A DNA stretch of 64,000 nucleotides from a virus. A program made the position numbers and the translations under genes. The notes under the pieces were generated by a model that saw only the letters and a program-made list of their open reading frames with translations, searched no databases and had not been told where the DNA came from. Of this stretch, positions 42,413 through 64,000 are shown piece after piece. The DNA is taken from positions 68,859 to 132,858 of the IMG/VR virus record IMGVR_UViG_3300042691_053984. One strand, given 5' to 3'. Within the stretch, counting starts at the first letter, position 1. The number at the start of each line of letters is the position of its first letter.

Positions 42413-44026
42413 ATGGCCCAACCTTCAGGTAGAGAACATCAGGTCAAGGAGGTCTTGAAGTGCGGACGTGACGCAGTCTACTTCATGAGATCATACGCAA
42501 GGATTCAACATCCAAAAAAGGGATTGATTCCGTTTGAGACGTACCCATTCCAGGACGATTGCGTCCATGATTTTGAAAAGAACAGATTCAACATCATTCT
42601 TAAGTCTCGTCAGTTAGGTCTGTCCACTGTCACCGCTGCGTATGCAGTGTGGTACGCCATTTTCAAGAAAGACAAGAACATCCTCGTCATTGCTACAAAG
42701 TTGCAAACTGCAATGAACTTCATCAAAAAGGTGAAGACAATGCTGGATGGTCTTCCAAAGTGGCTGTTGCTGACAAAGTTTGAGCCGACTCGACAACAGA
42801 TCAGGTTTTCAAATGGATCAACGATCACCGCCATTCCAACTTCACCTGACGCAGGTCGTTCAGAGGCTTTGTCTCTTCTAATCGTCGATGAGGCAGCATT
42901 TATTAGGGATTTCGAGGACATCTGGACCGGTCTATATCCCACGCTTTCAACGGGTGGTTCAGCCATTATCATCTCTACACCAAACGGCGTAGGGGGAATG
43001 TATTACAAACTATGGACAGATGGTGTCTCTCAACAAAACGAGTTCAACACCATCAATTTGCCATGGTGGGTACATCCGGAACACGATCAGGAATGGTTTG
43101 ACAAAGAGACCAGAAACCTTCCTAAAAGGAAGGTTGCACAGGAGTTTCTCTGTGACTTCATCTCGTCAGGTGACACGTTTTTACAAGAGACTGAGATGGA
43201 GTATCTCAGGTCGATGATCGAATCTCCGAGAAAAAAACAAGGACCAGCAAACGCCGTGTGGATCTGGGATGATCCACGACCGGGCAAAAAGTACGCAATC
43301 TCCGCTGACGTGGCCCGTGGTGACGGTGCTGACTTCTCAGCATTTCACGTCATTGACGCAGCAGAATGCCAAGTGGTGGCAGAGTACATGGGCAAAATAC
43401 CACCAGATAAACTTGCAGATCTTTTGTTAGAATACGGCAAGATGTACAATAACGCTCTGTTATGTCCTGAAAGGAACACATTTGGTTATTTCACCTGCGT
43501 AAAGTTACGTGACTCAGGTTATAAGAGGTTATGGTATAGGTCGACATCGGGAGACCCCTGGGAATATGCATGCTCGGACATAGAAGCAGTACCAGGATTT
43601 GAAACACAAGGAAATACAAGGCCACAGATTCTTGGTAAACTGGAAGAGTTGATCAGGAACAAGGTAATCAAGACGTATTCTCAAAGAACCTACGATCAAC
43701 TACAAGCATTTATTTGGCAAGGATCCAAGGCACAGGCCTCTCGTGAGAGTCACGATGACCTAATCTTGAGCCTTGCAATTGGTACATGGTTGACAAATGG
43801 AACTTCCTCCTCAAATGAGTCAGGAATGGAACACGCGATAGCGATGCTAAGATCAACAAGGGTCGAAAAGAGAGATACCAGTTCAATGCCCAGTGACATT
43901 AATTCAGTTAGACCTGTAAACAATCCACATGTTCATGGTTTCACTCCATATAGCGCTACAACGCCTAGGGATTCTTCGTCGGTAAAACACGGAGGAACGT
44001 CAGATTTTAGTTGGTTGTTGCGTTGA
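42413..44026 (+). CDS. terL: Terminase large subunit (T4 gp17-like)
   Basis: YPFQ; LKSRQLGLST Walker A; LIVDEAAF Walker B; ISTPNG; ADVARGDGADFS; HDDLILS. Confidence 0.96.
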   Translation: MAQPSGREHQVKEVLKCGRDAVYFMRSYARIQHPKKGLIPFETYPFQDDCVHDFEKNRFNIILKSRQLGLSTVTAAYAVWYAIFKKDKNILVIATKLQTAMNFIKKVKTMLDGLPKWLLLTKFEPTRQQIRFSNGSTITAIPTSPDAGRSEALSLLIVDEAAFIRDFEDIWTGLYPTLSTGGSAIIISTPNGVGGMYYKLWTDGVSQQNEFNTINLPWWVHPEHDQEWFDKETRNLPKRKVAQEFLCDFISSGDTFLQETEMEYLRSMIESPRKKQGPANAVWIWDDPRPGKKYAISADVARGDGADFSAFHVIDAAECQVVAEYMGKIPPDKLADLLLEYGKMYNNALLCPERNTFGYFTCVKLRDSGYKRLWYRSTSGDPWEYACSDIEAVPGFETQGNTRPQILGKLEELIRNKVIKTYSQRTYDQLQAFIWQGSKAQASRESHDDLILSLAIGTWLTNGTSSSNESGMEHAIAMLRSTRVEKRDTSSMPSDINSVRPVNNPHVHGFTPYSATTPRDSSSVKHGGTSDFSWLLR

Positions 44027-44375: not shown

Positions 44376-44450
44376 CGTAAATTCCTATACTGGGAAAGAT
44401 ACCGGCTTACAATTCCTTGAGCCATGTCTCTAATAGGCAGGCAAACAATT

Positions 44451-46424
44451 ATGGTAAAAAAACAAAATCAATCTTTGTTCAAGAAGCTGACCGACCTTTT
44501 TCGAAGCGGTCCTGTCGTCAAGAGAAAGATTAAAACAATTGACACAGCGATCGCCGTACCTGATAGGACAAAGTCTTCAGGCGCTCTTCTATTTCAGAAG
44601 TCACTCGCTCCCACTTACGCCACCATAACGGCCAACGCGTATAACCTTTCTGAACGCTTGATGCGCTATCAAGATTTTCAAGAAATGGAATATACTCCTG
44701 AAATTGCTGCCGCCCTTGACATCTACGCAGATGAATCCTGTTCGCAGGATGAAAAGGGTCGAGTGATGCATATCTACTCTGACAACGAGAAGATCAAAGA
44801 AATCCTAGAAGATCTATTCTACAATACCCTTAACACCGAATTCAATCTGAGGTCATGGACAAGAAACCTAGTAAAATACGGTGACTTTTTCCTCTATAAC
44901 GACGTACACCCAGATTATGGCGTTGTCTCCGCATTTCCTGTCCCTGTCAATGAAATAGAAAGGGAAGAGAACTTTGACAGGGATGATCCTTTTGCAGTCA
45001 GGTATCGTTGGGTCACATTGGGAAACAGGGTTTTAGAAAATTGGGAGATCACACACTTCCGCCTACTTGGTAATGACATGTTCTTGCCATACGGTTCATC
45101 AGTTATTGAACCTGCACGTAGAATTTGGCGTCAGCTCATTCTGATTGAAGACGCCATGCTTGTGTACAGGGTTGTGAGAGCTCCTGAGAGAAGGGTATTT
45201 TACATTGACGTGGCCAACATTCCAGCTGCAGACGTGCCACTCTACGTGGAAGAGCAAAGGAAGAACCTTAAAACAAATCAAGTGGTAGATAGGAACACCG
45301 GCAGAGTGGATCTCAGGTACAATCCTATGAGCGTAGATGAGGATTTTATAATCCCGGTTCGTGGTACAGACACAGGAACTCGCATCGAAACCCTTGCTGG
45401 CGGTCAAAACACCGCTGCAGTCGAAGACGTTGCGTACATACAAAAAAAGTTATTCGCGGCGTTGAAGATCCCACGAGCATATCTCGGCTATGACGAAATG
45501 CTTTCAAGCAAGGCGACACTTGCACAAGAAGACATCAGGTTCTCAAGAACCATCAACGTTATTCAACGGGTTCTTTTATCTGAGCTCAACAAGCTTGCGA
45601 TTATTCACTTGTACGCTCACGGTTTTGATGGCGATGATCTTCAAAATTTCACGTTGAGATTGTCTAACCCATCCACTGTTGCGCAGCAGCAGAAGCTGGA
45701 GCTTTGGAGAACCAAATTTGAGATCGCGGGATCTGCGCCAGAAGGTTACGTAAACAAAAACTTCATCCGTAAGGAGATCTGGGGCCTTAACGATGAAGAG
45801 TGCAATGAGATTGACGATGAACGTAAGAAGGACAAGATCATTGATCAACAAGTTGAGACCGCTGGTGCAGACGCAGTGGGCGAAGACACTGGGGGCGGCG
45901 ACGCAGGATCTGACCTTGGTGACCTCGACGCTGACCTTGGCGATACCGGTGGCGGAGACGATACCACCCCACCTGAAGAAAACGCCGGTGAAACTCCCGA
46001 AGAGGACAGTGAACCCGGGATATCTCTTTTGACGTCAGGCGATGATTATGATGATTTTGAGGGGGCGTCATACTCCCTTAAGGAACTTGATTTTCCGATC
46101 AACATCAGAAACAATATCAAGGAATCAAACCTTGTCGCTCGAAATAAAAGAAACAGTAAACGACGGAAAAGAGCGATGAAGCACATGCCAGATTTTGCGT
46201 CAATGTTGTCGCATGACAACAGAAGCTTCAAAGATGTGACAGGTCTAAAGTCCGTCCTTGAGACAAGGTTAAGTTCAAGCCCACAGCCAACGAGGACCAA
46301 TCTTCCACCTGACGTGTTGTCTGCGTTAAGGCAGTGGAAACAAAGACACGGTGTCACAAACTCGATATTGAAAGAGTCAGAGCAAGACCTATTTATTCTT
46401 GACGATGAAGGTGATGAGACATGA
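44451..46424 (+). CDS. Portal protein (T4 gp20-like) with an acidic C-terminal extension
   Basis: MEYTPEIAAALDIYADE; IEDAMLVYRVVRAPERRVFYIDV; EDFIIPVRG...IETLAGG; KKLFAALKIP. Confidence 0.95.
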   Translation: MVKKQNQSLFKKLTDLFRSGPVVKRKIKTIDTAIAVPDRTKSSGALLFQKSLAPTYATITANAYNLSERLMRYQDFQEMEYTPEIAAALDIYADESCSQDEKGRVMHIYSDNEKIKEILEDLFYNTLNTEFNLRSWTRNLVKYGDFFLYNDVHPDYGVVSAFPVPVNEIEREENFDRDDPFAVRYRWVTLGNRVLENWEITHFRLLGNDMFLPYGSSVIEPARRIWRQLILIEDAMLVYRVVRAPERRVFYIDVANIPAADVPLYVEEQRKNLKTNQVVDRNTGRVDLRYNPMSVDEDFIIPVRGTDTGTRIETLAGGQNTAAVEDVAYIQKKLFAALKIPRAYLGYDEMLSSKATLAQEDIRFSRTINVIQRVLLSELNKLAIIHLYAHGFDGDDLQNFTLRLSNPSTVAQQQKLELWRTKFEIAGSAPEGYVNKNFIRKEIWGLNDEECNEIDDERKKDKIIDQQVETAGADAVGEDTGGGDAGSDLGDLDADLGDTGGGDDTTPPEENAGETPEEDSEPGISLLTSGDDYDDFEGASYSLKELDFPINIRNNIKESNLVARNKRNSKRRKRAMKHMPDFASMLSHDNRSFKDVTGLKSVLETRLSSSPQPTRTNLPPDVLSALRQWKQRHGVTNSILKESEQDLFILDDEGDET

Positions 46425-47288: not shown

Positions 47289-47942
47289 ATGCTTATCGGT
47301 GAAAAACGCCTCTTAGACACATACGACGTCTTTGATTACAAAATCGTGACTGAGGTCGTGAAACCTGCAACAGTGGTTGAAGACTCCTCGGGTAACAGGA
47401 TCGAAGTGCCGGCCGTTAAAAAGGTATATATGAAGGGTGTCCTGCAGAAGGCGGATACCTTGAATCAGAACGGACGAATCTATCCTTTGCACCTCCTAGA
47501 GAGAGAGGTCAGAAATTACCAGAAGTTCATCATTGAGAACCGAGCCTTGGGTGAACTAGATCACCCAGATTCCTCTGTCGTCAATTTAAAGAATGTGTCT
47601 CACATCATTCGTGAGGCCCACCTTGAAAATGGGGTGGTATATGGTACAGCTGAAATTCTTGACACACCTTCTGGAAAGATCCTGCAGTCTCTTGTGGAGA
47701 GTGGTGTGAAACTTGGCATCTCATCTCGAGGAGTGGGCTCAACAAAGAAGCAGGGAGAATATCACATAGTCCAAGACGACTTTCAGTTGATTTGTTGGGA
47801 CTATGTGTCGGAGCCATCAACACCAGGTGCTTTCATGATCCCCGAGGGGAAGAGGATTGCCGAGGCAGAACTGAAGAAAATCTTCAATAAGAGTGACAGG
47901 ATTGACAGGGCTCTAAACGATATTTTGTCTTGCAAGTTTTAA
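47289..47942 (+). CDS. Prohead core protease (T4 gp21-like)
   Basis: NQNGRIYP; ALGELDHP (His); LGISSRGVGS (Ser); DYVSEPSTPGA. Confidence 0.95.
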   Translation: MLIGEKRLLDTYDVFDYKIVTEVVKPATVVEDSSGNRIEVPAVKKVYMKGVLQKADTLNQNGRIYPLHLLEREVRNYQKFIIENRALGELDHPDSSVVNLKNVSHIIREAHLENGVVYGTAEILDTPSGKILQSLVESGVKLGISSRGVGSTKKQGEYHIVQDDFQLICWDYVSEPSTPGAFMIPEGKRIAEAELKKIFNKSDRIDRALNDILSCKF

Positions 47943-47959: not shown

Positions 47960-48433
47960 ATGAATAACGGCATAAAAATGACTAGATCACACCTTAAGTC
48001 TCTCGTGAAGGAATGCCTCGTTGAAATCCTTCAAGAAGGTCTGGGGTCTGTGGTGCCCACAAGACCAAACGAACATGTCGTAGAGAGCAGACTGCCACAA
48101 GGCAAAAACGCTCAACAGGTGCAAAGACCTCGTAGCGCAAGTCTTGATACCCCCTTGGTTTCAAAAAAACCACAATTATCAAAATCACTCATTGAAACCA
48201 TTAGGCACGAGTCTAACGGAAATTCAATAATGGCTGACATCCTTGCCGATACCGCGACAACCACTCTACCAAAAATGTTATCAGGGGGTGATTCTTCCAA
48301 CATGTCACATTCTACAAGGATGTCGCAGGTGGAACACTTCAATGGAACACCTGAGCAGGTCTTCGGAGACGAAGTTGCATCAAGGTGGGCAAATCTTGCA
48401 TTTATGGACGTGTCAAACAGAAAAATGTCGTGA
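47960..48433 (+). CDS. Hypothetical head protein with the leader and a C-terminal RWANLA motif
   Basis: LKSLVKECLVEILQEG ... SRWANLAF. Confidence 0.75.
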   Translation: MNNGIKMTRSHLKSLVKECLVEILQEGLGSVVPTRPNEHVVESRLPQGKNAQQVQRPRSASLDTPLVSKKPQLSKSLIETIRHESNGNSIMADILADTATTTLPKMLSGGDSSNMSHSTRMSQVEHFNGTPEQVFGDEVASRWANLAFMDVSNRKMS

Positions 48434-49251: not shown

Positions 49252-49296
49252 ATTAAATCTGATTGATAATTATTTCGAAAAATCGTGGGGAAAAAT

Positions 49297-51021
49297 ATGT
49301 CGAAACAACTCTACGAAGAAGCGTTGGCTGATGTTAAGAAGCTAAAGGAAGTCGCTGAGGATAATGCGAAGCGAGCCTTGGTTGAAGCAGTGACCCCGCG
49401 AATTCGTGACCTGATAGAGAGGGAACTGTTGAGGGAATACAATGAGATGGACGGAGATGCAGTGGGTGCGCCCGGCTCCGTTCCTCCTCACGGTGACCTA
49501 ATGACAGATGACTATGAATCACTTTCCGGACCGGAAGAGGGTGGCAAAGTTACCCTTGACCTTGACGATCTGATGGCCGACACAGGTGGTTCTCCTGTCG
49601 GCCCACCGATGTTTGGCGGAGATTACGCCATGGACGACATGGTCTATGGGCTCGACACTGAATCGGTGAAGATGTTGCTGCCTGTCATAAATTCAGTTTC
49701 ATTGAACGAGAATTTTGAGGAAAAACTGTCGCAACTGGAAGAAAGCATCAAGAATATCAAATATTCTGTGTACTTTCTAAAGGAGTCAAAGGATGGGGCT
49801 TCATCCGTACCAAAGTTGATTTCTCTGGTTGAAGATATGTATTCACACCTGCAGGAGAACCTTGCGTCTTCCGGCAAGAAGAAAAAGTATGAACTGACAT
49901 TAGAAAGTTACTATCAACAACTCAACAAGCTCCAGGAGCAAAATATGCGCAGAAATAGATCTAGAAGGTTATTTGAGGATGACAGCGAAGGCGGAGGAAA
50001 GAAGGAACTTTCCTTCCTTGTCAAGTTTGGGGATCAGTTCCCTGAAGAGGCCTTGGACGATGTTGAAATTGAAGTTACACCCGGTGGAGACATGGGTGGA
50101 GATGACTTCGGCGACGACGAAGACATGGGCGACGAAGACATGGGCGACGAAGAGATGGGCGATGATGAGGACATGGGCGACATGGGTGACGACGAAGACA
50201 TGGGCGACATGGGAGATGAAGACATGGGTGACGAAGGTGGCGATGAAGAAGAGCCACAAGAGGAAGGTCAATACATGGAATCCCGAGTTCTCAGGAACAA
50301 TCTTGTCGTTGAGATCGATGAGGGAATGCTTCGTCGTGAGATCGGTCGCATGAAGACTCTTCGCGAGGCTCGTGCACGTCATCAGCGCAGACTCAATGAA
50401 GCCCGTAGGCTCAGGTCGCAGCGCAGAAATCTGCGTGAATCTGCACCGGTTCCTTCCACGAAGGGACACGGCCCCGGAAAGACAGTCAACAGCTTTGGCG
50501 GCGCTAAGTCCAAGGGAGACCCCTGGCTTGATCAGGAACTCACCCTTGAGATCGACGAGATGGAACTCGAAAATGACGAGATGGAGACCACTCAGTCGCA
50601 GCAAATGGAATCATATCGCAGAAATTCGAGATTGGCTTCTCGCAATGGTGCACGTCACAGTGACGCACCCAGCAGGCACGCGGTTCAGGCCGAATCAGTA
50701 CTCCGCGCAAAGTTGGCAGAATCGAATCTGTTCAACGCAAAGTTGATTTACGCGAACAAGCTGCTCCAGAATGAGTCGCTTTCGAGGAGGCAGAAGGCAC
50801 AGGTCATCGAGCGCCTTGATGAAGCTTCAAACCTGCGTGAAGTCAAGCTTGTCTATGAGAGCCTGACCAAGGCGTTGGCAGGAACCTCACGCCCATTGTC
50901 GGAGTCGGCTGATCGCAAGGTCATCGGATCTTCGTCCATGGCAACCCGTCCGGCGGCAACGAACCTCAATGAAGGATTTGAGACCGATCGTTGGGCACGT
51001 CTGGCCGGTATCAACAAGTGA
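49297..51021 (+). CDS. Prohead core scaffolding protein (T4 gp22-like)
   Basis: Directly upstream of the MCP; acidic and coiled-coil; LFNAKLIYANKL; many LxE motifs; ends DRWARLAGINK. Confidence 0.85.
   Translation: MSKQLYEEALADVKKLKEVAEDNAKRALVEAVTPRIRDLIERELLREYNEMDGDAVGAPGSVPPHGDLMTDDYESLSGPEEGGKVTLDLDDLMADTGGSPVGPPMFGGDYAMDDMVYGLDTESVKMLLPVINSVSLNENFEEKLSQLEESIKNIKYSVYFLKESKDGASSVPKLISLVEDMYSHLQENLASSGKKKKYELTLESYYQQLNKLQEQNMRRNRSRRLFEDDSEGGGKKELSFLVKFGDQFPEEALDDVEIEVTPGGDMGGDDFGDDEDMGDEDMGDEEMGDDEDMGDMGDDEDMGDMGDEDMGDEGGDEEEPQEEGQYMESRVLRNNLVVEIDEGMLRREIGRMKTLREARARHQRRLNEARRLRSQRRNLRESAPVPSTKGHGPGKTVNSFGGAKSKGDPWLDQELTLEIDEMELENDEMETTQSQQMESYRRNSRLASRNGARHSDAPSRHAVQAESVLRAKLAESNLFNAKLIYANKLLQNESLSRRQKAQVIERLDEASNLREVKLVYESLTKALAGTSRPLSESADRKVIGSSSMATRPAATNLNEGFETDRWARLAGINK
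50088..50250 (+). repeat. Coding tandem repeat (D-M-G-D-E units) in the scaffold
   Basis: GAC/GAG-ATG-GG(C/T/A) units repeated about eight times with variable acidic spacers. Confidence 0.85.
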
Positions 51022-51075
51022 TGCATTGAACAGTCGATTATAATAACCAACAAACAAACACACGGAGTTTTTAAG

Positions 51076-52974
51076 ATGAAGCACTTTACACTAGATCAGT
51101 TAACCCAGGGTATTCGCGAGAAGCACATCGGTGCTGAGCGTGCCCGCCTCGTGGAGAAGTGGAGCCGCACAGGCCTCCTCCGCGGCCTCGACGGCGTTCG
51201 CCGTGAGACAATGTCGCAACTCCTGGAGAATCAGGCAGCTCAGGTCCTCAAGGAGTCCAACTCACTCTCGACCGGTGGCGGTAACGTCGCCTCGTCAGGT
51301 CAGATCCAGGGCTTCAGCAATATCGCGTTCCCGATCGTTCGTCGTGTGTTCGGTGGCCTCGTCGCCAACGAGCTCGTCTCGATCCAGCCGATGTCGCTCC
51401 CCTCGGGCCTCATTTTCTACCTAGATTACACCTACGGCTCGAACGTCGGTGGTGACGCCGGTGTGGGTCTCTCGAATTCAGCAACGTTCGAGACGTACCA
51501 GCGTGGTCAGTCCATCTACAACAACCCGACCGGTAAGGGCATCCGCTCAGGATCGCTCGCCACGGGTGGTATGTACGACCTCGTCAACACGGGCTACACC
51601 AAGGTCCACTCGGGTTCGCTGGCCCTTGCCACTGCATCGATCGGTGCATGGACGGCAAATGGAGACGTCTGGTCTGTCCATGGAATCGTCAAGTCGGTAA
51701 CCGATCTTTCGGGCACAAACATTCGCCAGCTCCAGTTTGACCCACAGGTCGAAAACGATGTCTCTGACAACGCCCTTGACGTCTCCTTCGTTGTGGTTTC
51801 AACCTCTGACCTGCAGGCAGTCCTGCCCAAGGTTGACCTCCTCGCGGTCGATCAGATTGCCCTCTTTGGTCTCGGCACCAACGGCGGCGCGACAGCATGG
51901 GGTGAGACATATCAGTCAGGTAAGGGTGTGCTCAACCTGCGTCGTTTGAACCGCCGTGGTAACTGGACGGGTTCAGTGTTCACACCTGATCCGCTCAATG
52001 GAAACCACGTTCTGTTCGTTGTCAAGCTTACAAACACCGGGGCCACCCCCACGGTGCAGGTCGCAGATCGAAACACCCTCAAGGTCTCGGCCGCATTGAC
52101 AGACGCCCTCGAGATCGACTCGACGTCAGGTGCAGCGCTGACGGTTCCCTCGTTCGAGTCTGACTTCGGCTCGTCGCCCACTGCGGCGATCCCCGAGATC
52201 GACATCAAGATCGAGTCGATCGCCATCACGGCCACGACCCGTAAGTTGCGCGCTCGCTGGTCGCCGGAACTCGCACAGGACCTCAACGCCTATCACTCGA
52301 TGGACGCCGAGGTTGAGCTCACGTCGATCCTCTCAGAGCAGATCGCCCTCGAGATCGACCGCGAGATCCTGAGCGACCTCGTGACGACAGCCAACGGTGC
52401 CAACTACTACTGGTCACGCAGCCCAGGCCGCTTCCTCAACAAGGTGACGGGAGTTCGTCAGAACCTCGCCGACTCGTTGCAGATCGGACCGCAGTTCACC
52501 GGTACGGTTCGTGAGTGGTACGAGACCCTCGTTGAGACGGTCATCGACGTTGCCAACACAATCCACCGTAAGACACTTCGCGGCTCGGCCAACTTCCTCG
52601 TCACGTCGCCCGACGTCTGCACCATCCTCGAGTCATCGGTCCTCTACAAGCCGAAGTTCTCGATCGACGGTGAGGGTCAGGTCGGTTCGCCGTTCACAAT
52701 CGGCGCAGAGGCAATCGGCACAGTCTCGAACCGCTTCACGGTCTATAAGGACCCCTACTTCCCACGTAACAAGATCCTCATCGGTTACAAGGGCGGCAGC
52801 TACCTCGAGACCGGCTATGTGTATGCTCCTTACGTTCCGCTCATCGTGACACCCACGATCTTCGCTCCTGAGGACTTCACACCGCGTAAGGGCGTCATGA
52901 CAAGGTACGGCAAGAAGGTCATCCGTAGCGACTTTTACGGGACAGTGACTGTTCTCGACATGAACGTGATATGA
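51076..52974 (+). CDS. Major capsid protein (T4 gp23-like)
   Basis: FPIVRRVF...IQPMSLPSGLIFYL; TRKLRARWSPELAQDLNAYH; EQIALEIDREI; YAPYVPL; FTPRKGVMTRYG. Confidence 0.97.
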   Translation: MKHFTLDQLTQGIREKHIGAERARLVEKWSRTGLLRGLDGVRRETMSQLLENQAAQVLKESNSLSTGGGNVASSGQIQGFSNIAFPIVRRVFGGLVANELVSIQPMSLPSGLIFYLDYTYGSNVGGDAGVGLSNSATFETYQRGQSIYNNPTGKGIRSGSLATGGMYDLVNTGYTKVHSGSLALATASIGAWTANGDVWSVHGIVKSVTDLSGTNIRQLQFDPQVENDVSDNALDVSFVVVSTSDLQAVLPKVDLLAVDQIALFGLGTNGGATAWGETYQSGKGVLNLRRLNRRGNWTGSVFTPDPLNGNHVLFVVKLTNTGATPTVQVADRNTLKVSAALTDALEIDSTSGAALTVPSFESDFGSSPTAAIPEIDIKIESIAITATTRKLRARWSPELAQDLNAYHSMDAEVELTSILSEQIALEIDREILSDLVTTANGANYYWSRSPGRFLNKVTGVRQNLADSLQIGPQFTGTVREWYETLVETVIDVANTIHRKTLRGSANFLVTSPDVCTILESSVLYKPKFSIDGEGQVGSPFTIGAEAIGTVSNRFTVYKDPYFPRNKILIGYKGGSYLETGYVYAPYVPLIVTPTIFAPEDFTPRKGVMTRYGKKVIRSDFYGTVTVLDMNVI

Positions 52975-53005
52975 TATGAATGTTATCTAATACGATAACA
53001 TAATC

Positions 53006-53033
53006 AAGGGCCACTTTTTAGTGGCCCTTTTTT
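53006..53033 (+). terminator. Rho-independent terminator after the MCP gene
   Basis: AAGGGCCAC-TTTTTA-GTGGCCCTT followed by a T-run; a second 8-bp hairpin lies at 52980-53001. Confidence 0.9.
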
Positions 53034-53035
53034 AG

Positions 53036-53063
53036 TTTACATTTAATAGTTGCTGTTTATTAT
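53036..53063 (+). promoter_or_regulatory. Possible sigma70-like promoter for the endonuclease gene
   Basis: TTTACA-N16-TATTAT. Confidence 0.35.
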
Positions 53064-53071
53064 ATAGTTAT

Positions 53072-54016
53072 ATGTTAACTATGCTAGACAATAAATGTAA
53101 AATATGCGAAAAAGAATTTGGCTCCCTAGAGTCAGTCTTCAGGCACATCAAGGTCCACGAAATAAAAGCTAAAGAGTACGTCCTAAAGTGGAAGCACAAT
53201 GGTATTGCACCGCTATGTTCTTGCGGATGTGGGGGAGAAACTAATTGGAATATAGCTTTAAAGGATTTTGCAAAGTTTATTCAAGGACATCATGCACACG
53301 GAAGAGCTAAGTCTGATGACGAAAAGAGAAGAATCGGAGAAAAAAATAGGGCCAATATGAAGGCGTGGATGGCAAGACATCCAGATGTAGCAAAGAAAAG
53401 AGCCGAAAGCATGGCAAGCATTAGAACTCCTGATTTTGAAGAACGTCGCATTAATTCAACACGCAAAGCCTACGAGTCAATGACCGCAGAAGACAAGCAA
53501 AAGTTCTCTGATCATTTTAAAAGACTTTGGGAGGATGGGACACTAACAGAAGCCCATGTTAAATCTAGCGAAACGTTCAAGCGTCGTTTTGCAAATGGAG
53601 AATATGATTTTGCTGAGCGAAATGAGAAGATCTCCGCTATCATAACCCAGTTATATCTTGATGGCGGATTCGAGTGGTCTACAGGCCAATACATTTCTGT
53701 GAAATCTGGAAAGACATTCAACTACAGGTCTTCATGGGAGCTTGAATTAATGAGGCAGTTGGATGAAGACGCAGTCGTTGAGCTTTGGAATTATGAGCCC
53801 TTTTCGATACCTTACCTCTTCGAGGGCAAGGTTCGTAGATATGTCCCAGACTTTCATATTGTAACTGACGATGGGCAAGACGTGCTTGTAGAAGTTAAGC
53901 CTGCTAGCCTTAGTGGCACAGAGAAAAACTCTTGTAAACGGTTAGCCGCTGTGGAATTTTGTCAAAAAAATGGGTGGAGATATCTTGAGTGGAAGCCCGG
54001 CGATAAAATACCGTGA
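53072..54016 (+). CDS. Putative free-standing homing endonuclease (Zn finger + NUMOD3-like + TnsA-N PD-(D/E)xK)
   Basis: CKIC...HIKVH; PLCSCGCG; KSDDEKRRIGE; YRSSWE...YEPFSIPY...YVPDF...LVEVKP. Confidence 0.8.
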   Translation: MLTMLDNKCKICEKEFGSLESVFRHIKVHEIKAKEYVLKWKHNGIAPLCSCGCGGETNWNIALKDFAKFIQGHHAHGRAKSDDEKRRIGEKNRANMKAWMARHPDVAKKRAESMASIRTPDFEERRINSTRKAYESMTAEDKQKFSDHFKRLWEDGTLTEAHVKSSETFKRRFANGEYDFAERNEKISAIITQLYLDGGFEWSTGQYISVKSGKTFNYRSSWELELMRQLDEDAVVELWNYEPFSIPYLFEGKVRRYVPDFHIVTDDGQDVLVEVKPASLSGTEKNSCKRLAAVEFCQKNGWRYLEWKPGDKIP

Positions 54017-54034
54017 TTAGCTTTTGCCTAGCTT

Positions 54035-54060
54035 GAGGCTACCGAAAGGCAGCTTTTTTT
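54035..54060 (+). terminator. Rho-independent terminator
   Basis: GAGGCTACC-GAAA-GGCAGCTTTTTTT (one mismatch in the stem). Confidence 0.7.
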
Positions 54061-54132
54061 TTATTTGGAGTGTATTATTTGTTTTTTCTAATTAGTTATT
54101 TACGAATGTCACGCGTGACGGGAGAAGCACAC

Positions 54133-55266
54133 ATGAGAATGAGTTCTTTGCAGCTAAAGAGATTGATAGAGTCTGAGGTAAAGGGTGCCATGGAGTCGAA
54201 GAGACGGACAAAGAGACGCCCAATGAGAGAGGCTTCGTTCAGGCCTAGCTTGGTCTCGCTAATTTTTGAAGAGTTAAGCGACGCAGAGACTGAAAATTTG
54301 ATTAGTAAAAATATCACACAGCCCTTGTCATCGACAGCAGACAAGACGACAGTAGAAAAGATAGTTCAGTTTTTAAACTCAAGTGAGGGTCAAGACCAAA
54401 AAGTAAGAGATAAGCTGGCGTCTGGTGCAAATGACGGTAACCCATCTGACGAAGTTATGGAAGTTGGGGTAGAGACATTGCCTGTCTTGAAACTCAAACC
54501 CTCTCAGTCACAAATTGGTTTGCCTAATTCAATCGGGTTTGCGTTTACTTCAAAGGGGAAAAAAGTGGGGGCCTTGGAGGCCGCGTTGAAGGGAAATGTG
54601 AACTCAACGGAAATTGTCGCGTGTGGCGACGGCATTGATAATAACTTTATCATCGATGGTCACCACAGGTGGTCGTCGGCAATCGCCGTAAATCCAGCTG
54701 CAAATATCACCGTCTCTTTCATTAAAGGAGACGATGCATTCAAAGTGCTGTCAATATGCCAGCTTGCCATTGCTACTTACAAGCCAGGTAAACTACCATC
54801 TAACACTTCTGAACCTGACACAAACTTACTTACCATGAGCGCCGACGCAATCGCACAGTACGCAAAAGACAACGTCGGAAAAGTCGTTGATGAAAAGGCA
54901 GGCTCCCCGCTTTTGACTGACGATATCTTAGACTTCCTTGCCGGGCAAGGCTATGGAGGCGCATCAGCGACAGATGACAGAGACACGAAGCTGGATAAGA
55001 TCTGCACCAAGATCGGAGAGAACTGCAAAAAAGTGCCAACACCTGGTGACGCGCCTGACAGAGTTCATATGCCGCAGTTTGATCCAAAATCGGGCGGTCC
55101 GACGCTTGATCAAGTTAAAGATAAATTTACGGGCGGGCAATTAAACTTTAAAGATCCTGTTGGTTCATCAGGCGGAGGAAAGCAGCAGGTCACTGCGGAA
55201 TCTTGGGATCGCCAAGGTGCAGTCGTCGTAGAGCGCTGGCAGCGGCTTGCTGGATTGATCAAGTAA
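54133..55266 (+). CDS. ParB/Srx-domain protein with the N-terminal leader and C-terminal RWQRLAG tag
   Basis: LKPSQ...FIIDGHHRWS; GGAG SD supports the start at 54133. Confidence 0.8.
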   Translation: MRMSSLQLKRLIESEVKGAMESKRRTKRRPMREASFRPSLVSLIFEELSDAETENLISKNITQPLSSTADKTTVEKIVQFLNSSEGQDQKVRDKLASGANDGNPSDEVMEVGVETLPVLKLKPSQSQIGLPNSIGFAFTSKGKKVGALEAALKGNVNSTEIVACGDGIDNNFIIDGHHRWSSAIAVNPAANITVSFIKGDDAFKVLSICQLAIATYKPGKLPSNTSEPDTNLLTMSADAIAQYAKDNVGKVVDEKAGSPLLTDDILDFLAGQGYGGASATDDRDTKLDKICTKIGENCKKVPTPGDAPDRVHMPQFDPKSGGPTLDQVKDKFTGGQLNFKDPVGSSGGGKQQVTAESWDRQGAVVVERWQRLAGLIK

Positions 55267-55281
55267 GATTGGAGAAAATAC

Positions 55282-56343
55282 ATGAGATACAACAACAACA
55301 GAAATAGTGAGCTTTTTAGATTGCGTCAGACGATCAGGAGAATCATCAAGGAAGAGGCGGAGAACGTAATCCCTGGAGATGCGTCGCCTGATAAGCAGGT
55401 TCACGTGTTTGACTTCGATGACACTCTCGGTGAGACGTCGAACGCCAACGGGATCATGTTGCATCAGGACGGGAAACCCGTTCACAAGTCAGAAGGAGAG
55501 GCTCGTGATTGGGCAAAGTCTATGGGGCTGACAAACTCTGACTTCCTTCCGCCTGAAGTTGCACAGATCTCCAACAGAGACGGTGGCTATGCGATCTACG
55601 TGACGTCAAAAGCGCTAGCTAAAGTGCAGAACCTCTTTAAACCCTCGAAGACAAAGCAGGCGATCACGGGTGTGAGCGAGCCTCCAGCAAAGGGTCCATC
55701 TATCTTAATTGACTTTACACCGTCGGCAGACGTAAGTATAGAAACGACTAAACCAATCGACTCGACTATCGACAGGTTGAAGGACGCAAATTCGAAGGGA
55801 TCAAAGACCATCGTCATCACTGCGAGGCAGGCCGACGGCGAAGGCACAAACTTTAAAGGCGAAAAAGTCGGAGCGACAAATGCCAAAGACATGAATGCAT
55901 TTCTATCGAAGCAGGGTGCCAAGCCGACTGACGGCGTATTGGGAGTCGTGGGTCAAAACAAGGGAGATGCTATCATCGACAAGTACCTGAAGTCAGGGGA
56001 GCCTCCCGAAGAGATACACTTCTACGACGACTTGGAGAAAAACACGAGTGAGGTCGAGGCAGCCGTAGGAAAACAAGTACCATCAGAGCTTTTTGTCTAC
56101 GGCCCAGGAGAATTTGCCCACGGTCAGGCAAGCGCGGATAGTCCTCGGGCGAAATTTCCCAAGGACGAAGCTTCAGAAGAAGACTGGAAGAAGCGTGACA
56201 CAGATCGTCGTGCAGCAAACAAGGCAGCTCGTGCAGCTGCAGATGCAGCCGCAGCTGCACAAGCTCAAAACTCGAGCCGCTTCAGGGACGGTGCGGTCAT
56301 GGTGGAACGCTGGCAGCGCCTCGCAGGTTTAATCAAGGATTGA
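55282..56343 (+). CDS. HAD-superfamily phosphatase with the N-terminal leader and C-terminal RWQRLAG tag
   Basis: VFDFDDTL (motif I); VITAR (II); NKG (III); FYDD (IV). Confidence 0.85.
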   Translation: MRYNNNRNSELFRLRQTIRRIIKEEAENVIPGDASPDKQVHVFDFDDTLGETSNANGIMLHQDGKPVHKSEGEARDWAKSMGLTNSDFLPPEVAQISNRDGGYAIYVTSKALAKVQNLFKPSKTKQAITGVSEPPAKGPSILIDFTPSADVSIETTKPIDSTIDRLKDANSKGSKTIVITARQADGEGTNFKGEKVGATNAKDMNAFLSKQGAKPTDGVLGVVGQNKGDAIIDKYLKSGEPPEEIHFYDDLEKNTSEVEAAVGKQVPSELFVYGPGEFAHGQASADSPRAKFPKDEASEEDWKKRDTDRRAANKAARAAADAAAAAQAQNSSRFRDGAVMVERWQRLAGLIKD

Positions 56344-56378
56344 TATATATATAAGCAGATGTCAGCAGGAGAAAACAC

Positions 56379-57395
56379 ATGAGAATCAGCCCACAGACGT
56401 TGAATAGAATCATCACATCAGAGATCAGGTCACTAATGGAGTCAAAGAAAAGAGTGACCAGAGGTAAAGGAAGACCCAGTCTATATTCTGCTTTATTTGA
56501 AGATGCAGACCCAGGTAAGATCGATCCGAATAGATTCCCACTAGAGTTGGGATCTGTGAATATAGATTCAGCAAAAAAATTCGTGTCAGGTGGTCTCAAC
56601 GATGGCGATAAAAAAGATGATGTGATCAGCGCAAAAGTAAACGCAAGTTTGGGCACTGTCAAAGACTTAAAACCGTCTCAGACTTCTATGAACCTAGGCA
56701 AAGCTTGGTCATTTGCTCTTAGCATGATTAACGGCACAATGCCTGGTTCTGATGGCCCTGGAGGGAACCTTGATGCCTTTGTTTCTAGCGATAACTACAT
56801 TATGGATGGACACCATAGGTGGATCGCAAGCTGGATGGTCGATCCTGTTGCTGAGATGAAAGGCCATAAAGTGAATATGCCTGGCGAAAAGCTTGTCGCA
56901 GTTTTAAACGCAGTCACAAAGGGTCTACATGGTATTGAAAAAGGAAATCCATCAACAGGCGGTTTTGACCAGTTTAAAGACAAGCAAAAGATGACAGATG
57001 CCTGTAAGGCTGGGATTGAAGCAGGCCCGATTAATGGTAATGTTGAAGATTTGAAAAAGAAATTAAAAGATTGGACGGGCACGCAAGACGATGCCGGGCT
57101 CGTTGACGCGACTGTTGAAAAAGTCATGGACAACTTGTCGTCGTTACCAAGCGATATCATGCCAAATGCTCCATCAAGAGAGAATATGCCGGTGATTGAT
57201 GACAAGAAGACATCCGGCGCTACGAAAAAAACTCTCATGGCCCTAGCTGGTGGCCAAATTGACGTCAATCCTCCATACGCTTCTGAAGAAGGAGAAGAAG
57301 GCGATAAGCCAAAGACTGCGCAGAACTCAGGCCGCCTGAGGGGCGGTGAGGTCATGGTGGAACGGTGGCAGCGTCTCGCGGGTCTCGTACGCTGA
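56379..57395 (+). CDS. ParB/Srx-domain protein (paralog of 54133) with the leader and RWQRLAG tag
   Basis: LKPSQ...YIMDGHHRWI; shared RPSL-x-S-x-x-FE and MP-x-x-D motifs. Confidence 0.8.
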   Translation: MRISPQTLNRIITSEIRSLMESKKRVTRGKGRPSLYSALFEDADPGKIDPNRFPLELGSVNIDSAKKFVSGGLNDGDKKDDVISAKVNASLGTVKDLKPSQTSMNLGKAWSFALSMINGTMPGSDGPGGNLDAFVSSDNYIMDGHHRWIASWMVDPVAEMKGHKVNMPGEKLVAVLNAVTKGLHGIEKGNPSTGGFDQFKDKQKMTDACKAGIEAGPINGNVEDLKKKLKDWTGTQDDAGLVDATVEKVMDNLSSLPSDIMPNAPSRENMPVIDDKKTSGATKKTLMALAGGQIDVNPPYASEEGEEGDKPKTAQNSGRLRGGEVMVERWQRLAGLVR

Positions 57396-59663: not shown

Positions 59664-60476
59664 ATGAAAGACACCCACACAGTCAAACCGTTTCCATTTT
59701 ATGAAGGACCGAAGGCGCCGGTCAACGATTCTTATTTGTCATCCCAGATTAGATCTGGGATGAACACGCTTTTGATAGACGGATACAGGCAAGGCACAGA
59801 GATAATAACACAACGACACTTCGTGTCAGGGATGTTCAAAATACACGCCGGAGAATATGACTACGAAAATAACATAAATCACGTAGTCAAACAGAATCGG
59901 TTTGGAATGGACAATCAAACAAATAGACGCGACGCGGCGTTCACTGATAACGAGAAATTCAATCCAGTCAAATTTATTCAGATACAAGAAAAGTTTTCTT
60001 ACATCTACGCAAACTTAATCACCCTACCTTTTTACGTAGACGATAATGATGAAACCTCGGTAGACAACTACGACGGAGTCATAGAGCCTCTAGACATCAG
60101 GGCAACAGTCGCCTTAAGGCCTACCGAGGTTCCGTTTTTGGCACACAGTATTAAGGCATCTCTCACCAATAGCGATGATGCGTACGGTGCGGTACAGATA
60201 TTACAATCTGATTATTTTAGACCTGAAACCTCCATCGTGATTTACGATGATGAGGGGTATTTTAAAAATGAATTCATCAGAAACAAACCTTTTGACGACA
60301 TAAAAAGGTACTCTCAATATTGGAGTGCAGACATAATTAATGCGCAGGAAAGCATGAGGGGATCAACTGATGATTATATTTCAACTAAACAAAGGTCTTC
60401 CTGCACAGGTCGGGACTATGACAACAATACCTCAGTCGGAACAGATTCAATTGCGTTTGGAGGCTTGACATACTAA
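59664..60476 (+). CDS. Hypothetical protein, probably structural
   Basis: 270 aa; TAATG-coupled to the downstream giant ORF. Confidence 0.65.
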   Translation: MKDTHTVKPFPFYEGPKAPVNDSYLSSQIRSGMNTLLIDGYRQGTEIITQRHFVSGMFKIHAGEYDYENNINHVVKQNRFGMDNQTNRRDAAFTDNEKFNPVKFIQIQEKFSYIYANLITLPFYVDDNDETSVDNYDGVIEPLDIRATVALRPTEVPFLAHSIKASLTNSDDAYGAVQILQSDYFRPETSIVIYDDEGYFKNEFIRNKPFDDIKRYSQYWSADIINAQESMRGSTDDYISTKQRSSCTGRDYDNNTSVGTDSIAFGGLTY

Positions 60477-63400
60477 TGCCAACCGCAAAAGAACGCAGGG
60501 CTCCGCCCGCACAAGTTTTCGAAAATTATGTTTTTAACAGGATTACCGGCCCAACAGTGAAACTGTTCCCGATTGCCTCTTCGGCAATGTGGGGATTTTC
60601 TGATGGTTTTGGTAGTGGCAACGTTGATGAAGATGTTTCTGAAACCACAGAATTAGGATTTGACCTTAGGTTCAACGAAAAGACCTATGACAGATTCGTA
60701 GTTCACACGAATGGATTCATGATCCTGAGAGAAAAATCTGACGTTGGCGTCTTTTCAGTCTCTGACTATATATCAGTGACATCACCGACAACGTTGAATG
60801 ATTACATACGTAGTCGTTTCACAACGGGTGGTGTTATGTTGTGTCCATGGTTTGGAGACTTGAGGACGGCTTATGACAACGTCTCTCAACTTGCATACAC
60901 AACCCCAAAACAAAAGCAAAACATTCAAAGAGGTATCTCACTACCTCCCACGCCCTTGGATCCCACTCGTTCAGGAATAAAATATAAAAAAACTACCAGC
61001 CCTAGCGGTGTGAAGTGTCTCATAGTGAGGTGGAGGTCTTTTTCTTCATATACCTCGTTGCCTGAGTCAATCATTACATTTGAAGTAATCATCTACGAAA
61101 ATGGCAAGATTGAATTTAGGTATGACACAAGGAAAACGTTGACCCCATATGGGTGTAACGCTGTGACTGACGGTGCAACGATCGGTATTTTTGTAAATGA
61201 TACAATAAATTCAGATCTCACTTATTGGAGATTTCGTGACCTATCTGTAGGATTGGGACACCCGGGTGACTCGACGCGATCAACGTCAAAGTTTGGTGGC
61301 GCAGTTTACGACAGCGCTTACGGAGATTCAAACCTGTTTTATCCGTCGGTTCCGTACAACGTAACCATGTATCCATCCAACGTAGATGTTACTGCCCCGT
61401 CCGGTCTATTAGGAAGAATTTCTAATTGGCCGGGTCAGGAACTCTTTTGCTGTGGTATTACGTTCTCTCCTCCGGTGAATCGCATGAGGATTTTGCCCAG
61501 GAAAGAGGTTCATGTCGGTGACACACGGGCATCATATCCCGTGATCATCAGGACCGGCGATGCTTCGAACAACAGGGTTTCATTCGATATGTTCGATGAT
61601 CGTCGTTCCATAGCATACGGAGGGTCATCAATAGTCAATCTTCCGACGACATTGCCGAGAGGTTATTCCTTTAACGTACCTGGTGCAATCGAAAGACAAG
61701 GAATCTATGGAGACATGGAAATCACGGCCAGCATATCAAAGACTGCGGCCGAGCAATTTTTGTCGTTCATCCCGGTAGATTACGTTTCACCTTTCTGTGA
61801 TCACAACAGGCCTGAGCAGGGCATGGCAAGCCAATATTATATGACAGGTTCACCTGCCTCTCTTTTCGGAGAGAGCTTAAGGTATCCGCTGAGGTCAAAA
61901 ACACAAATCAAGTTTGACCTACCTTTGAATCATCCTTTGCAGATGCTTGAAACAGGATCTGCCATATACTACTACAACAATAAGATCAAAGGTATGTTCA
62001 TCCCACAAGTGGGAGGCGCGCCGTCAGACATTGCAGACCCTCGAGATGCACTAGGTTCTTCCTACGGTGAATTTTGGCCCGAGGATTCACGTTGTTTTGG
62101 ACCGATAGGAAATGTTGTTGCGTCAGGATCTATTGATATTTCATTTCCGGCATTATCATCAGACCCAAACTTTGGACGTGATTCAGAGGATTGGGTCGAC
62201 GTTGAATCTCCCATTGACACCTTATCAAAGACTTATTTGAAAAACCCGCAGATCAATCCCGACTATAACGCGTCAGATGATGAGTTGATCACAATTCCCA
62301 TTAACCAGCCTTTCGTGGTAGAAAAGGCAGTGTTTAACATACCCGTAAAGATGGGACCAGGTTGGTTTAATGATAAGACTACGTCCTGTACCCCGCTGGG
62401 GGCTACAAGTGGAGCAGGCTCTCCCACAGATCGAGGGGTTGTCTCAAACGTCTTTGATTTTGCCGGACCTGCGATAACCTTATCGCTTTTCAATCAGATA
62501 AAAAATGGCGAACTTGTTCACAGAGACTTAATCCTGACAGGAACGGTGATTCCGGAAGGCGACAGTTATGGTAGCGTAACAGTTAGACAATCATGGCTTA
62601 AGTCTGGTGGTTCACCATATCCCATCTGGACTTTTGAACCTGAAGGATTTGTCAAATACAACTCATCGCCCTCTGTTGTTGTGAAGCAGTCGTCTGCGGG
62701 CACGTATACAGGTTCTTTATCGATTCCCACCGAGGCAGGTATCTCAAACGGTGTGACTTTACGTCAACTATTGAGAATGACGACATATGCTCCCGCTTTA
62801 TCTCTCCCTGTTGCCACAGCACGGGCACAAGCAACAATTGACTACATGACGAGGCCAACTATAAGTGTTTATGAAAATGTGGTTAATGATGGAGGAAAGG
62901 GCTACGTAATCAGTTCAAACGTTAAAAGCGTAAATCCTTTCGGAAGAGACTCGAGGGGAAATAACGTAAGTGGCAGATCCATTTTCGGAAAGGAGTTCAC
63001 TACATTTCAAAGTCTGGATCAAATGACAGTAAAGAATCCGTTGTTTGTGTCATCAAGTTTTAGTGATTTTCCAACCTCATTGAGTGACTATCTTGACATC
63101 AATAACAATTCTGAATTTCAGGCATACATTCAATATGCAGTCCCGATAGAACAGAACTCTAAATCACCTTATTTGCTGATGCCGGGCGACAAATTGATAT
63201 TTGCACTGTCTAAGAATAGGCCCGCCATGCACACAAATGGAATACAGGCTGTGACCCGTGCATCGGTTGACGTGTTCAGGCAGGGTCTAAGACACGACGT
63301 GTGGATCAATACCGGATCAATTAGCGTCACTTTATATGGTTCCTTGTTGAGAGAAGGTAAAGAGTTTCATGACACAATGAACCAAAATCTGGCGTCAAAC

Positions 63401-64000
63401 CAGATACACGAAGCGTTGGGATCCGAACCAGTGACAGATCAATTTCAGGTAGAATACCAAGATTCTTTCTATGGTTCGTACACTGACAGCATGGTGACAG
63501 GTTCGATGTTCCCACGGACCCAAAATAAAATATTTTACCACGTGACACAGTCGTTCGGTTTCTCAGTTACACCCGTCAGTGAAGTTTATTCGAAAGTACA
63601 GGAAAAAATATCCATAGGAACTACCCGTGGAAGTATTGCAAGCAATCTCTTTGCAAGAGATTCATTGTTTGATGAAACAACCAGCTCTATCACGGAACTG
63701 GCGTCAGTAGGAAATAAGTCTAAAATCTTGCAACCGGCATACGAAAGATCAGGCAGACAGACTTATGTTAGAATCTCGTCTGATCACGAAAGATTCTTTG
63801 ACTCAATGGTGCCAAATCTTTTTGATTGCCTCAAAATTGACGGTCAATATGTTCACGCTGTGACAAATCCAAACAGGATATTTTTTCCTGATAGTCCTCC
63901 ATTCATTGGAGCGTTTGATCGTGAAAAACAGTACGGTATGATAGAAATCAACTCAGTTCCATTGGTTGACAACGCAGATTTTCGACGAATGAATTCAAGC
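60476..64000 (+). CDS. Large (>1175 aa) probable virion/tail protein with an N-terminal NIDO-like domain; truncated by the window edge; not in the supplied ORF track
   Basis: My translation: MPTAKERRAP...LGFDLRFNEKTYDRFVVHTNGF...LCPWFGDL...TFEVIIYENGKIEFRY; frame open at the points checked, including the last codons. Confidence 0.7.
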   Translation, partial: MPTAKERRAPPAQVFENYVFNRITGPTVKLFPIASSAMWGFSDGFGSGNVDEDVSETTELGFDLRFNEKTYDRFVVHTNGFMILREKSDVGVFSVSDYISVTSPTTLNDYIRSRFTTGGVMLCPWFGDLRTAYDNVSQLAYTTPKQKQNIQRGISLPPTPLDPTRSGIKYKKTTSPSGVKCLIVRWRSFSSYTSLPESIITFEVIIYENGKIEFRYDTRKTLTPYGCNAVTDGATIGIFVNDTINSDLTYWRFRDLSVGLGHPGDSTRSTSKFGGAVYDSAYGDSNLFYPSVPYNVTMYPSNVDVTAPSGLLGRISNWPGQELFCCGITFSPPVNRMRILPRKEVHVGDTRASYPVIIRTGDASNNRVSFDMFDDRRSIAYGGSSIVNLPTTLPRGYSFNVPGAIERQGIYGDMEITASISKTAAEQFLSFIPVDYVSPFCDHNRPEQGMASQYYMTGSPASLFGESLRYPLRSKTQIKFDLPLNHPLQMLETGSAIYYYNNKIKGMFIPQVGGAPSDIADPRDALGSSYGEFWPEDSRCFGPIGNVVASGSIDISFPALSSDPNFGRDSEDWVDVESPIDTLSKTYLKNPQINPDYNASDDELITIPINQPFVVEKAVFNIPVKMGPGWFNDKTTSCTPLGATSGAGSPTDRGVVSNVFDFAGPAITLSLFNQIKNGELVHRDLILTGTVIPEGDSYGSVTVRQSWLKSGGSPYPIWTFEPEGFVKYNSSPSVVVKQSSAGTYTGSLSIPTEAGISNGVTLRQLLRMTTYAPALSLPVATARAQATIDYMTRPTISVYENVVNDGGKGYVISSNVKSVNPFGRDSRGNNVSGRSIFGKEFTTFQSLDQMTVKNPLFVSSSFSDFPTSLSDYLDINNNSEFQAYIQYAVPIEQNSKSPYLLMPGDKLIFALSKNRPAMHTNGIQAVTRASVDVFRQGLRHDVWINTGSISVTLYGSLLREGKEFHDTMNQNLASNQIHEALGSEPVTDQFQVEYQDSFYGSYTDSMVTGSMFPRTQNKIFYHVTQSFGFSVTPVSEVYSKVQEKISIGTTRGSIASNLFARDSLFDETTSSITELASVGNKSKILQPAYERSGRQTYVRISSDHERFFDSMVPNLFDCLKIDGQYVHAVTNPNRIFFPDSPPFIGAFDREKQYGMIEINSVPLVDNADFRRMNSS

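Follow-up and report, generated by a model that had tools for sequence, protein, structure and literature searches.

A C-terminal peptide shared by the scaffold and three enzymes of an uncultured T4-type phage is a candidate address for the prohead interior

The DNA examined here, the window, comprises the last 64 kb of a single virus record of 132,858 bp (IMG/VR record IMGVR_UViG_3300042691_053984); all whole-genome counts cover the full record. The window carries a T4-type head module in which an acidic, low-complexity protein of 578 amino acids (49285..51021, plus strand; the gene likely starts at the ATG at 49297), assigned as the scaffold (prohead core) protein, has the C-terminal end DRWARLAGINK (RWARLAGINK at 50989-51018). 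Three genes on the plus strand, located 3' of the gene of the major capsid protein (MCP), encode enzyme-like proteins with a similar C-terminal end, and we treat these as candidate cargo proteins: a ParB/Srx-like protein with a DGHHRW motif (ParB1, 54133..55266; end VVVERWQRLAGLIK, with the tail RWQRLAGLIK at 55234-55263), a HAD-superfamily phosphatase-like protein (DUF2608, 55282..56343; end VMVERWQRLAGLIKD, with the tail RWQRLAGLIKD at 56308-56340) and a ParB/Srx-like paralogue of the first (ParB2, 56379..57395; end VMVERWQRLAGLVR, with the tail RWQRLAGLVR at 57363-57392). The start of ParB1 at 54133 was chosen from the alignment with its paralogue. A first-pass annotation, made from the letters of this DNA alone, had quoted these four C-termini and proposed that the peptide of the scaffold is reused as a tag for loading enzymes into the capsid; all four are present at the ends where it had placed them.

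In a six-frame scan of the 132,858-bp genome, RW..LAG occurs at these four places and nowhere else, each time at most 11 residues from a stop; 300 block shuffles gave a mean of 0.07 occurrences per genome and a maximum of 2. The carriers are thus the scaffold and the three enzymes encoded 3' of the gp23-type MCP gene. ParB1 and ParB2 are true paralogues, 27% identical along their whole length (E 1e-23). Between the HAD protein and ParB2 only the last 25 residues are shared (76% identity); their bodies do not align, and DRWARLAGINK is the only part that the scaffold shares with the enzymes. The nearly identical tail DNA that had been described for the unrelated HAD and ParB bodies is there too: identity is about 90% over 39 nucleotides and the differences are mostly at third codon positions. 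A related motif, SRWANLAF, had been reported from a small head-module protein (47960..48433, plus strand; N-terminal leader ..HLKSLVKECLVE..). It is real (48383-48430), 16 residues before the stop, and ..FG.E..SKWA.LAF..KK ends this protein family in about 40 relatives. The flexible linker said to precede each tag is only partly borne out: residues 301-323 of ParB2 are predicted to be disordered by AlphaFold2 (AF2; predicted local distance difference test score, pLDDT, below 50), but the corresponding region of the HAD protein (299-330) is a long, Ala-rich helix.

The connection of the tag to the C-terminus of the scaffold is held across a large clade of relatives. More than 598 related viral loci have an MCP that is 70-81% identical, and in about 78 of the 80 loci that were fetched the protein encoded upstream of the MCP ends with L-N-E-G-[YF]-E-A-[DE]-R-W-A-[RKQ]-L-A-G-I-x-K. 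Distant cultured relatives, with 35-47% MCP identity, have a version of the scaffold tail as well: SRWQKLAGIIK in Flavobacterium phage immuto, ERMKKLAGIVK in Microcystis phage Mel-JY01 and ERIKRLAGL in Rhodothermus phage RM378. The motif was not found in gp22 of T4, which ends with ..YAKVASRF, in gp22 of P-SSM2 or at the C-terminus of T4 Alt. No usable virion proteome was found in the published accounts of Mel-JY01 and immuto.

The tail is also found on many proteins that are not scaffolds. Two back-translated pattern scans of viral contigs identified 78 distinct proteins with ERWQ[RK][LIM]AG, which is C-terminal in 65 of them, N-terminal in 4 and internal in 9; the tail-bearing proteins fall into 15 clusters with bodies unrelated by BLAST. 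When a tail profile of 30 positions was run against 1.84 billion representative proteins, 137 clusters were found at E 0.001 or better: the G of the motif lies 2-9 residues from the C-terminal end in 136 of these, and the 89 representative proteins with at least 150 amino acids have 21 BLAST-unrelated bodies. The search of the genome and its relatives that the first-pass annotation had suggested, for the C-terminal motif and the domains attached to it, therefore returned a tag that moves as a module between unrelated bodies, in the viral contigs (15 clusters) as well as in the representative library (21). A motif confined to true paralogues, which the same annotation had named as grounds for abandoning the idea, is not what was found. 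Pfam names few of the tagged bodies (SWIRM, Zeta_toxin, DUF2608, PG_binding_1), and for most of them searches of Pfam, NCBIfam and PHROGs gave no named match. A tblastn search with a 25-amino-acid tail against 50,697 phage records had no match; this reflects a limit of the method with short queries and is no evidence of absence.

Across 62 tail DNAs all synonymous codons are used, and selection therefore acts on the peptide and not on DNA or RNA. A DNA- or RNA-level signal was rejected on this codon diversity together with the number of unrelated bodies, and paralogy alone on the 21 unrelated bodies together with the codon diversity. One tail-bearing protein (L091:3214-4197, plus strand) has a PG_binding_1 domain (E 1e-11) and could be ejected and act on the cell wall. 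A further tail-bearing family (L108:4276-5850, L166:1984-3492) has the Walker A motif GPPAAGKG, and one member in the representative library matches Zeta_toxin, a P-loop kinase family.

The HAD family illustrates how the tag is exchanged. Of 120 metagenomic homologues, 86 end with a tail of the RW..LAG type (44 of the ERWQ type and 42 with the scaffold-like ..KE[GS].DL.RWA.LAG..), seven have a leader-like ..KLKEITKKII.. in a C-terminal extension instead of the tail and 11 have a short, untagged C-terminal end. In two HAD homologues of other jumbo-phage contigs, L136:2387-3676 and L163:4888-6381 (both on the minus strand), RW.KLAG is found at the N-terminus, followed by ..E. The homologue of L163 has the leader-like ..KKQLRKIIREA.. 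near its C-terminus, so that the two tag types have swapped ends. In contigs as large as 461 kb, clusters of small proteins likewise begin with M..K(E)RWQ[KR]LAG[IL][LIV].E; in L094:2128-5124 and L152:2269-9386 there are runs of unrelated small proteins, all tagged N-terminally, that look like cargo arrays. The N-terminus of immuto gp187 is ..RRMQKLAGIITE. Since other phages carry RW..LAG at N-termini, the tag appears to be independent of position and usable from either end of a protein. In five longer HAD homologues (P0036, P0041, P0053, P0065 and P0087) the HAD body is succeeded by a leader-like motif in the interior of the protein (..ALRSLIRHEILRE.., ..LKKIIKEELE..) and by another domain; such proteins may be polyproteins whose parts are linked where tags and cut sites lie.

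The bodies of the tagged enzymes are predicted to fold well. The AF2 model of ParB2 has a pLDDT of about 90 for the body, a leader helix (residues 5-21) and, behind the disordered linker, a tail helix (324-337); the model of the HAD protein, with a pLDDT of 88, likewise has one helix for the leader (6-26) and one for the tail (337-347). In both models leader and tail are drawn as isolated helices, set off from the confidently folded body. ParB1 and ParB2 have no match in Pfam or NCBIfam at E 0.01 or better and matched only phrog_2859, a family with unnamed function. However, DGHHRW is invariant in 14 ParB/Srx-like homologues, and the profile of this family matches the same motif in PF0380/1vk1 and in the free serine kinase SerK (E 0.06). 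The best eight structural matches of the ParB2 model (VIA) are all of the ParB/Srx superfamily, with modest Z scores of 4.2-5.6 in comparison to at most 3.1 for unrelated entries; they include SerK, sulfiredoxin, Atu1540, SbnI, PadC, pNOB8 ParB-N and KorB. On this evidence, ParB1 and ParB2 are predicted ParB/Srx-fold proteins with a DG-x-HR nucleotide-site motif. The label ParB, given in the first-pass annotation, needs to be corrected accordingly: the nearest relatives are a serine kinase and sulfiredoxin, and any nuclease role would be hypothetical.

The HAD protein matches Pfam PF11019 (DUF2608) with 28.5 bits, above the gathering cut-off of 22.6. HAD motifs I-IV (DxDxT, T/S, K, DD) are invariant in 24 homologues (D44, D46, T48, T180, K227, D249 and D250). 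The top Foldseek matches of its model are mostly HAD enzymes (MDP-1, AphA, Ceg4 and P domains of P-type ATPases) and are weak, with E values of 0.01 or above. No relative of the HAD protein was found in cultured phage records. For the ParB/Srx-like proteins there is a homologue of 149 amino acids in Ackermannviridae (28% identity, E 1e-4) that is annotated as structural protein after LIMEstone1; mass spectrometry of LIMEstone1 virions had detected, with five peptides, an unknown structural protein of 17.31 kDa (ORF102) in a matching gene neighbourhood. This annotation is an indirect experimental hint that ParB/Srx-like proteins may be located in the virion.

At their N-termini the three enzymes share a leader pattern, L-[RK]-x-[LI]-I-x-x-E (ParB1: MRMSSLQLKRLIESE, 54133-54177; HAD protein: ..LRQTIRRIIKEE, 55282-55356; ParB2: MRISPQTLNRIITSE, 56379-56423). 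As a pure sequence pattern the leader marks about 14 open reading frames (ORFs) genome-wide, six of them outside the window, suggesting that more proteins than the three tailed enzymes are addressed to the head; the sites in the window are at 35663, 44085, 47993, 48497, 54154, 55333, 56400 and 57955. The tail profile does not detect the leaders of the same genome, and leader and tail are therefore separate motifs here. Among tail-bearing proteins, 20 of 48 have the leader, compared with 6.7% of background ORFs. This co-occurrence agrees with the two-ended address that had been postulated; the placement of the tag at N-termini in other phages does not.

Both tags have a conserved Glu beside them. 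Cargo tails have [VIL]-[ILVM]-[VLM]-E directly before RW, scaffold tails have L-N-E/G seven residues upstream (the slash marks a putative cut) and leaders carry [LIV]-x-x-E. The N-terminal region of the MCP keeps Q-[VIL]-L-K-E/S, a putative maturation site, at the place where T4 gp23 matures in the alignment. In T4, gp21 cleaves after L/I-x-E, the capsid targeting sequence (CTS) is an N-terminal propeptide of 10 residues, and Alt is processed at both ends (PMC9026906). The window encodes a prohead core serine protease of the T4 gp21 / MEROPS S77 type (47289..47942, plus strand; Pfam PF03420 Peptidase_S77, E 1.7e-27), which we presume to be the enzyme that trims leaders and tails; its own C-terminus (..RIDRALNDILSCKF) differs from the tag. 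To judge from their sequences, the Glu-ending sites beside the tails fit this protease, and hence tags that may be removable.

The genes of the S77 protease, the scaffold and the MCP (51076..52974, plus strand; T4 gp23 family, Pfam PF07068 Gp23, E 1.1e-75) are in the order of genes 21-22-23 of T4, and the acidic protein encoded between protease and MCP thus occupies the position of gene 22. Its gene is separated from that of the protease by two small leader-bearing ORFs. At its two ends the protein shows homology to gp203 of Flavobacterium phage immuto (E 5e-17). The annotation of this homologue (L122:7725-8966, MW353176.1 immuto35A_203) reads 'DNA polymerase phi-like protein' and is probably a spurious match due to the acidic low-complexity region. 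Further upstream are the genes for the terminase (42413-44026) and the portal (44424-46424). A strong terminator (53006-53029) follows the MCP gene and was all that scans for consensus promoters and terminators yielded; the window has a single copy of the T4 late promoter TATAAATA, with 1.6 expected. With no enrichment and no consensus promoters, late co-expression could not be shown. Past the terminator, between the MCP and cargo genes, lies a gene (53072-54016, plus strand) for a protein with a C2H2 zinc finger and a TnsA-like/endonuclease I-like part, which resembles a free-standing homing endonuclease (compare segD after gene 23 in T4), and 3' of it the three cargo genes are closely packed. 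A DenV-like pyrimidine-dimer glycosylase (PF03013; 57352-57942, minus strand) is convergent with ParB2, with a 3' overlap of 44 nucleotides; in the Ackermannviridae phage rabagast (L193) a DenV-like gene is found two genes away from the ParB/Srx-like 'structural protein'. At 60476-64000 on the plus strand, an ORF that exceeds 1175 amino acids runs past the end of the window. CheckV completeness of five relatives (G001-G005, the records of L012, L049, L059, L060 and L043) is 39-84% at 140-278 kb, which implies genomes of about 330 kb, and the 132,858-bp record may therefore itself be a fragment.

The explanation that we consider best, and hold to have about an even chance of being correct, is that (E)RW-x-[RK]-LAG-[LI]-x-K is a portable, protease-removable address for the prohead interior that has been copied from the C-terminus of the scaffold and is used together with a leader resembling the T4 CTS. 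We infer the binding partner as well as cleavage, packaging and ejection, as follows. The scaffold would grip the inner face of the gp23-type shell with its short amphipathic tail helix, and enzymes with this helix at the end of a flexible linker would dock at scaffold sites and become enclosed. The docking site would be the one that the scaffold uses in the prohead, most likely on the inner face of the MCP, and the CTS-like leader at the N-terminus would tie the enzymes to the core as an additional anchor. Thereafter the S77 protease would cut after the conserved Glu next to each tag, at [ILV]-x-E/RW in the cargo, L-N-E/G in the scaffold and [LIV]-x-x-E in the leaders. The trimmed enzymes would be free inside the head and could exit with the DNA at infection.

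Several observations weigh against this explanation. Internal proteins of T4 are targeted through the core and not through the shell, and T4 has no RW..LAG tail. Two positions consistently distinguish cargo tails (ERWQ) from scaffold tails (DRWA), and partners or affinities may accordingly not be the same; some large relatives have the scaffold tail and no cargo tail, which makes the tagging system an accessory one. The assignment of the 49285-51021 protein as scaffold is based on synteny, composition and the homology to immuto gp203, and BLASTP finds no similarity to T4 gp22. The reading of the cut sites applies the T4 rule, which may differ in this clade. In part of the set of tails, the E at position -2 was fixed by the search pattern. 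Finally, the Ackermannviridae homologue is linked to ORF102 of LIMEstone1 by a chain of annotation, size (17.3 kDa) and gene neighbourhood only.

The main rival to this explanation differs in the partner: the tag is a head address, but the RW..LAG helix would self-associate and tagged proteins would co-polymerise with the scaffold core instead of binding the shell, as has been supposed for T4 CTS proteins. In favour of this, gp22 and the internal proteins of T4 purify together, and the CTS is reported to work via the core (PMC9026906; PMC7411985). The presence of the motif at either terminus would suit helix-helix packing, and the pair of small residues in the middle of the helix, A-G, would suit close helix contacts. 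We nevertheless think core binding unlikely: the tail is the most conserved part of a fast-changing scaffold, as expected from contact with the slowly changing MCP, and those scaffold C-termini that have been studied bind the capsid protein (80alpha and CpmB, and likewise P22 and herpesviruses). If the tagged proteins were instead transient helpers of assembly or maturation, degraded or expelled together with the scaffold, nothing would be delivered to the host. The location of the tagged genes within the head module would agree with this, as would the fact that tagged proteins have the tail and the nearby Glu sites in common with the scaffold, which is itself removed. However, the bodies fold confidently as enzymes and have few internal low-complexity stretches, one tail-bearing relative has a peptidoglycan-binding domain that suggests action at the host envelope, and a variable accessory set of zero to three tail-bearing proteins per genome is typical of ejected effectors such as the T4 internal proteins and not of core assembly factors; a role as helpers is thus decidedly improbable.

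The peptide could also be a short linear motif for a partner outside the capsid interior, such as a GroEL-like chaperonin, a host factor or a degradation system, with the scaffold merely one client. It is short and helical like many docking motifs, but its most constant carrier, in hundreds of phages, is the extreme C-terminus of the scaffold, encoded beside the MCP; in addition, CTS-like leaders and Glu cut sites accompany the tag, and the tagged genes cluster directly 3' of the MCP gene, leaving such a partner a slim chance. That the peptide lacks a function of its own and the shared tail is left over from paralogy or from a recent recombination of neighbouring genes would be compatible with the paralogy of ParB1 and ParB2 and with the about 90% likeness of the HAD and ParB2 tail DNAs. 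It is contradicted by 21 unrelated bodies, by the C-terminal position in 136 of 137 clusters, by the diverse codons and by the preservation of the scaffold tail at 35-47% MCP identity, and we regard it as barely credible.

Parts of the proposed address have parallels in known systems. Scaffold C-termini bind the capsid protein in P22, phi29 and herpesviruses. In herpesviruses, the protease UL26 and the scaffold UL26.5 share an MCP-binding C-terminal tail that is cut off at the M site by the maturation protease: as proposed here, an enzyme enters the procapsid via the C-terminal tail of the scaffold, which is later removed. The difference is that the shared tail of the herpesviruses comes from nested in-frame genes, whereas the tag described here is a module fused to independent genes of many families. 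The protease of HK97 is targeted to the prohead by a C-terminal extension that is then removed. A C-terminal propeptide with the same fate was proposed to target the gp245 protease of SPN3US (PMC7411985). These tails serve the protease alone, in contrast to the tag of this study, which is present on several enzymes and differs from the C-terminus of the protease. Encapsulins load many unrelated cargos by a short C-terminal peptide that follows a flexible linker, and the cargo gene adjoins the gene of the HK97-fold shell (see also 10.1101/2021.03.18.436031). Here, the peptide is another one, a scaffold and a removable tag are involved and the shell is that of a tailed phage with portal, terminase and protease. 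That the locus is itself an encapsulin was ruled out by terminase, portal and S77 protease, and by the sheath and tube genes of relatives.

In T4, which also has a gp23-type MCP and an S77 protease, the internal proteins IPI-III and Alt have a CTS that is trimmed by gp21 (Mullaney & Black 1996; PMC9026906). The likeness lies in short terminal peptides on unrelated proteins with a Glu-ending cut site beside the tag, and the leaders of this phage are CTS-like; the CTS differs from the tag in its N-terminal position, its length of about 10 residues and its unrelated sequence, while the tag is mostly C-terminal and equals the C-terminal peptide of the phage's own scaffold. By analogy, the closest proven precedent for the copying of a scaffold tail is CpmB of SaPI1, whose C-terminal RIIK copies that of the 80alpha scaffold and binds the same site of the capsid protein in cryo-electron microscopy (cryo-EM) structures (PMC6893505). 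In both cases a second protein shares the conserved C-terminal peptide of the scaffold, here including the 42 scaffold-like tails of the HAD family. However, CpmB is a rival scaffold from a satellite that alters capsid size, whereas the copies described here have another motif, are on the phage's own enzymes and are known from sequence.

Full-text literature searches found no description of the RW..LAG motif. Tag-directed loading of T4-type heads, loading by N-terminal leaders (the CTS principle) and mimicry of scaffold tails are all known already; what is new is that enzymes carry a copy of the scaffold's tail. A broader reading, tentative and somewhat doubtful, is that RW..LAG is a general, position-independent and protease-removable address for the pocket of the gp23 shell that receives the scaffold, and that its carriers are the ejected set of a large clade of uncultured T4-like jumbo phages, dominated by nucleotide/phosphate enzymes (ParB/Srx-like proteins close to kinases, HAD phosphatases and P-loop/zeta-like kinases). 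If this is true, host nucleotides or the ends of nucleic acids would be the targets of the ejected enzymes within seconds of the onset of infection, for instance to counter defence systems, and a peptide of 10 residues, fused to either terminus, could serve to bring foreign proteins into T4-type capsids. How phages choose the proteins that they enclose and deliver is known in detail only for the N-terminal CTS of T4 and a few other cases. The tag would provide a readable sequence rule for a large and widespread uncultured group (more than 598 capsid loci and at least 137 tagged clusters), link cargo loading directly to the anchoring peptide of the scaffold and predict which unknown proteins are virion cargo. 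It would also make it possible to ask, in a natural setting, if the scaffolds of phages and the cargo peptides of encapsulins follow the same principle on HK97-fold shells.

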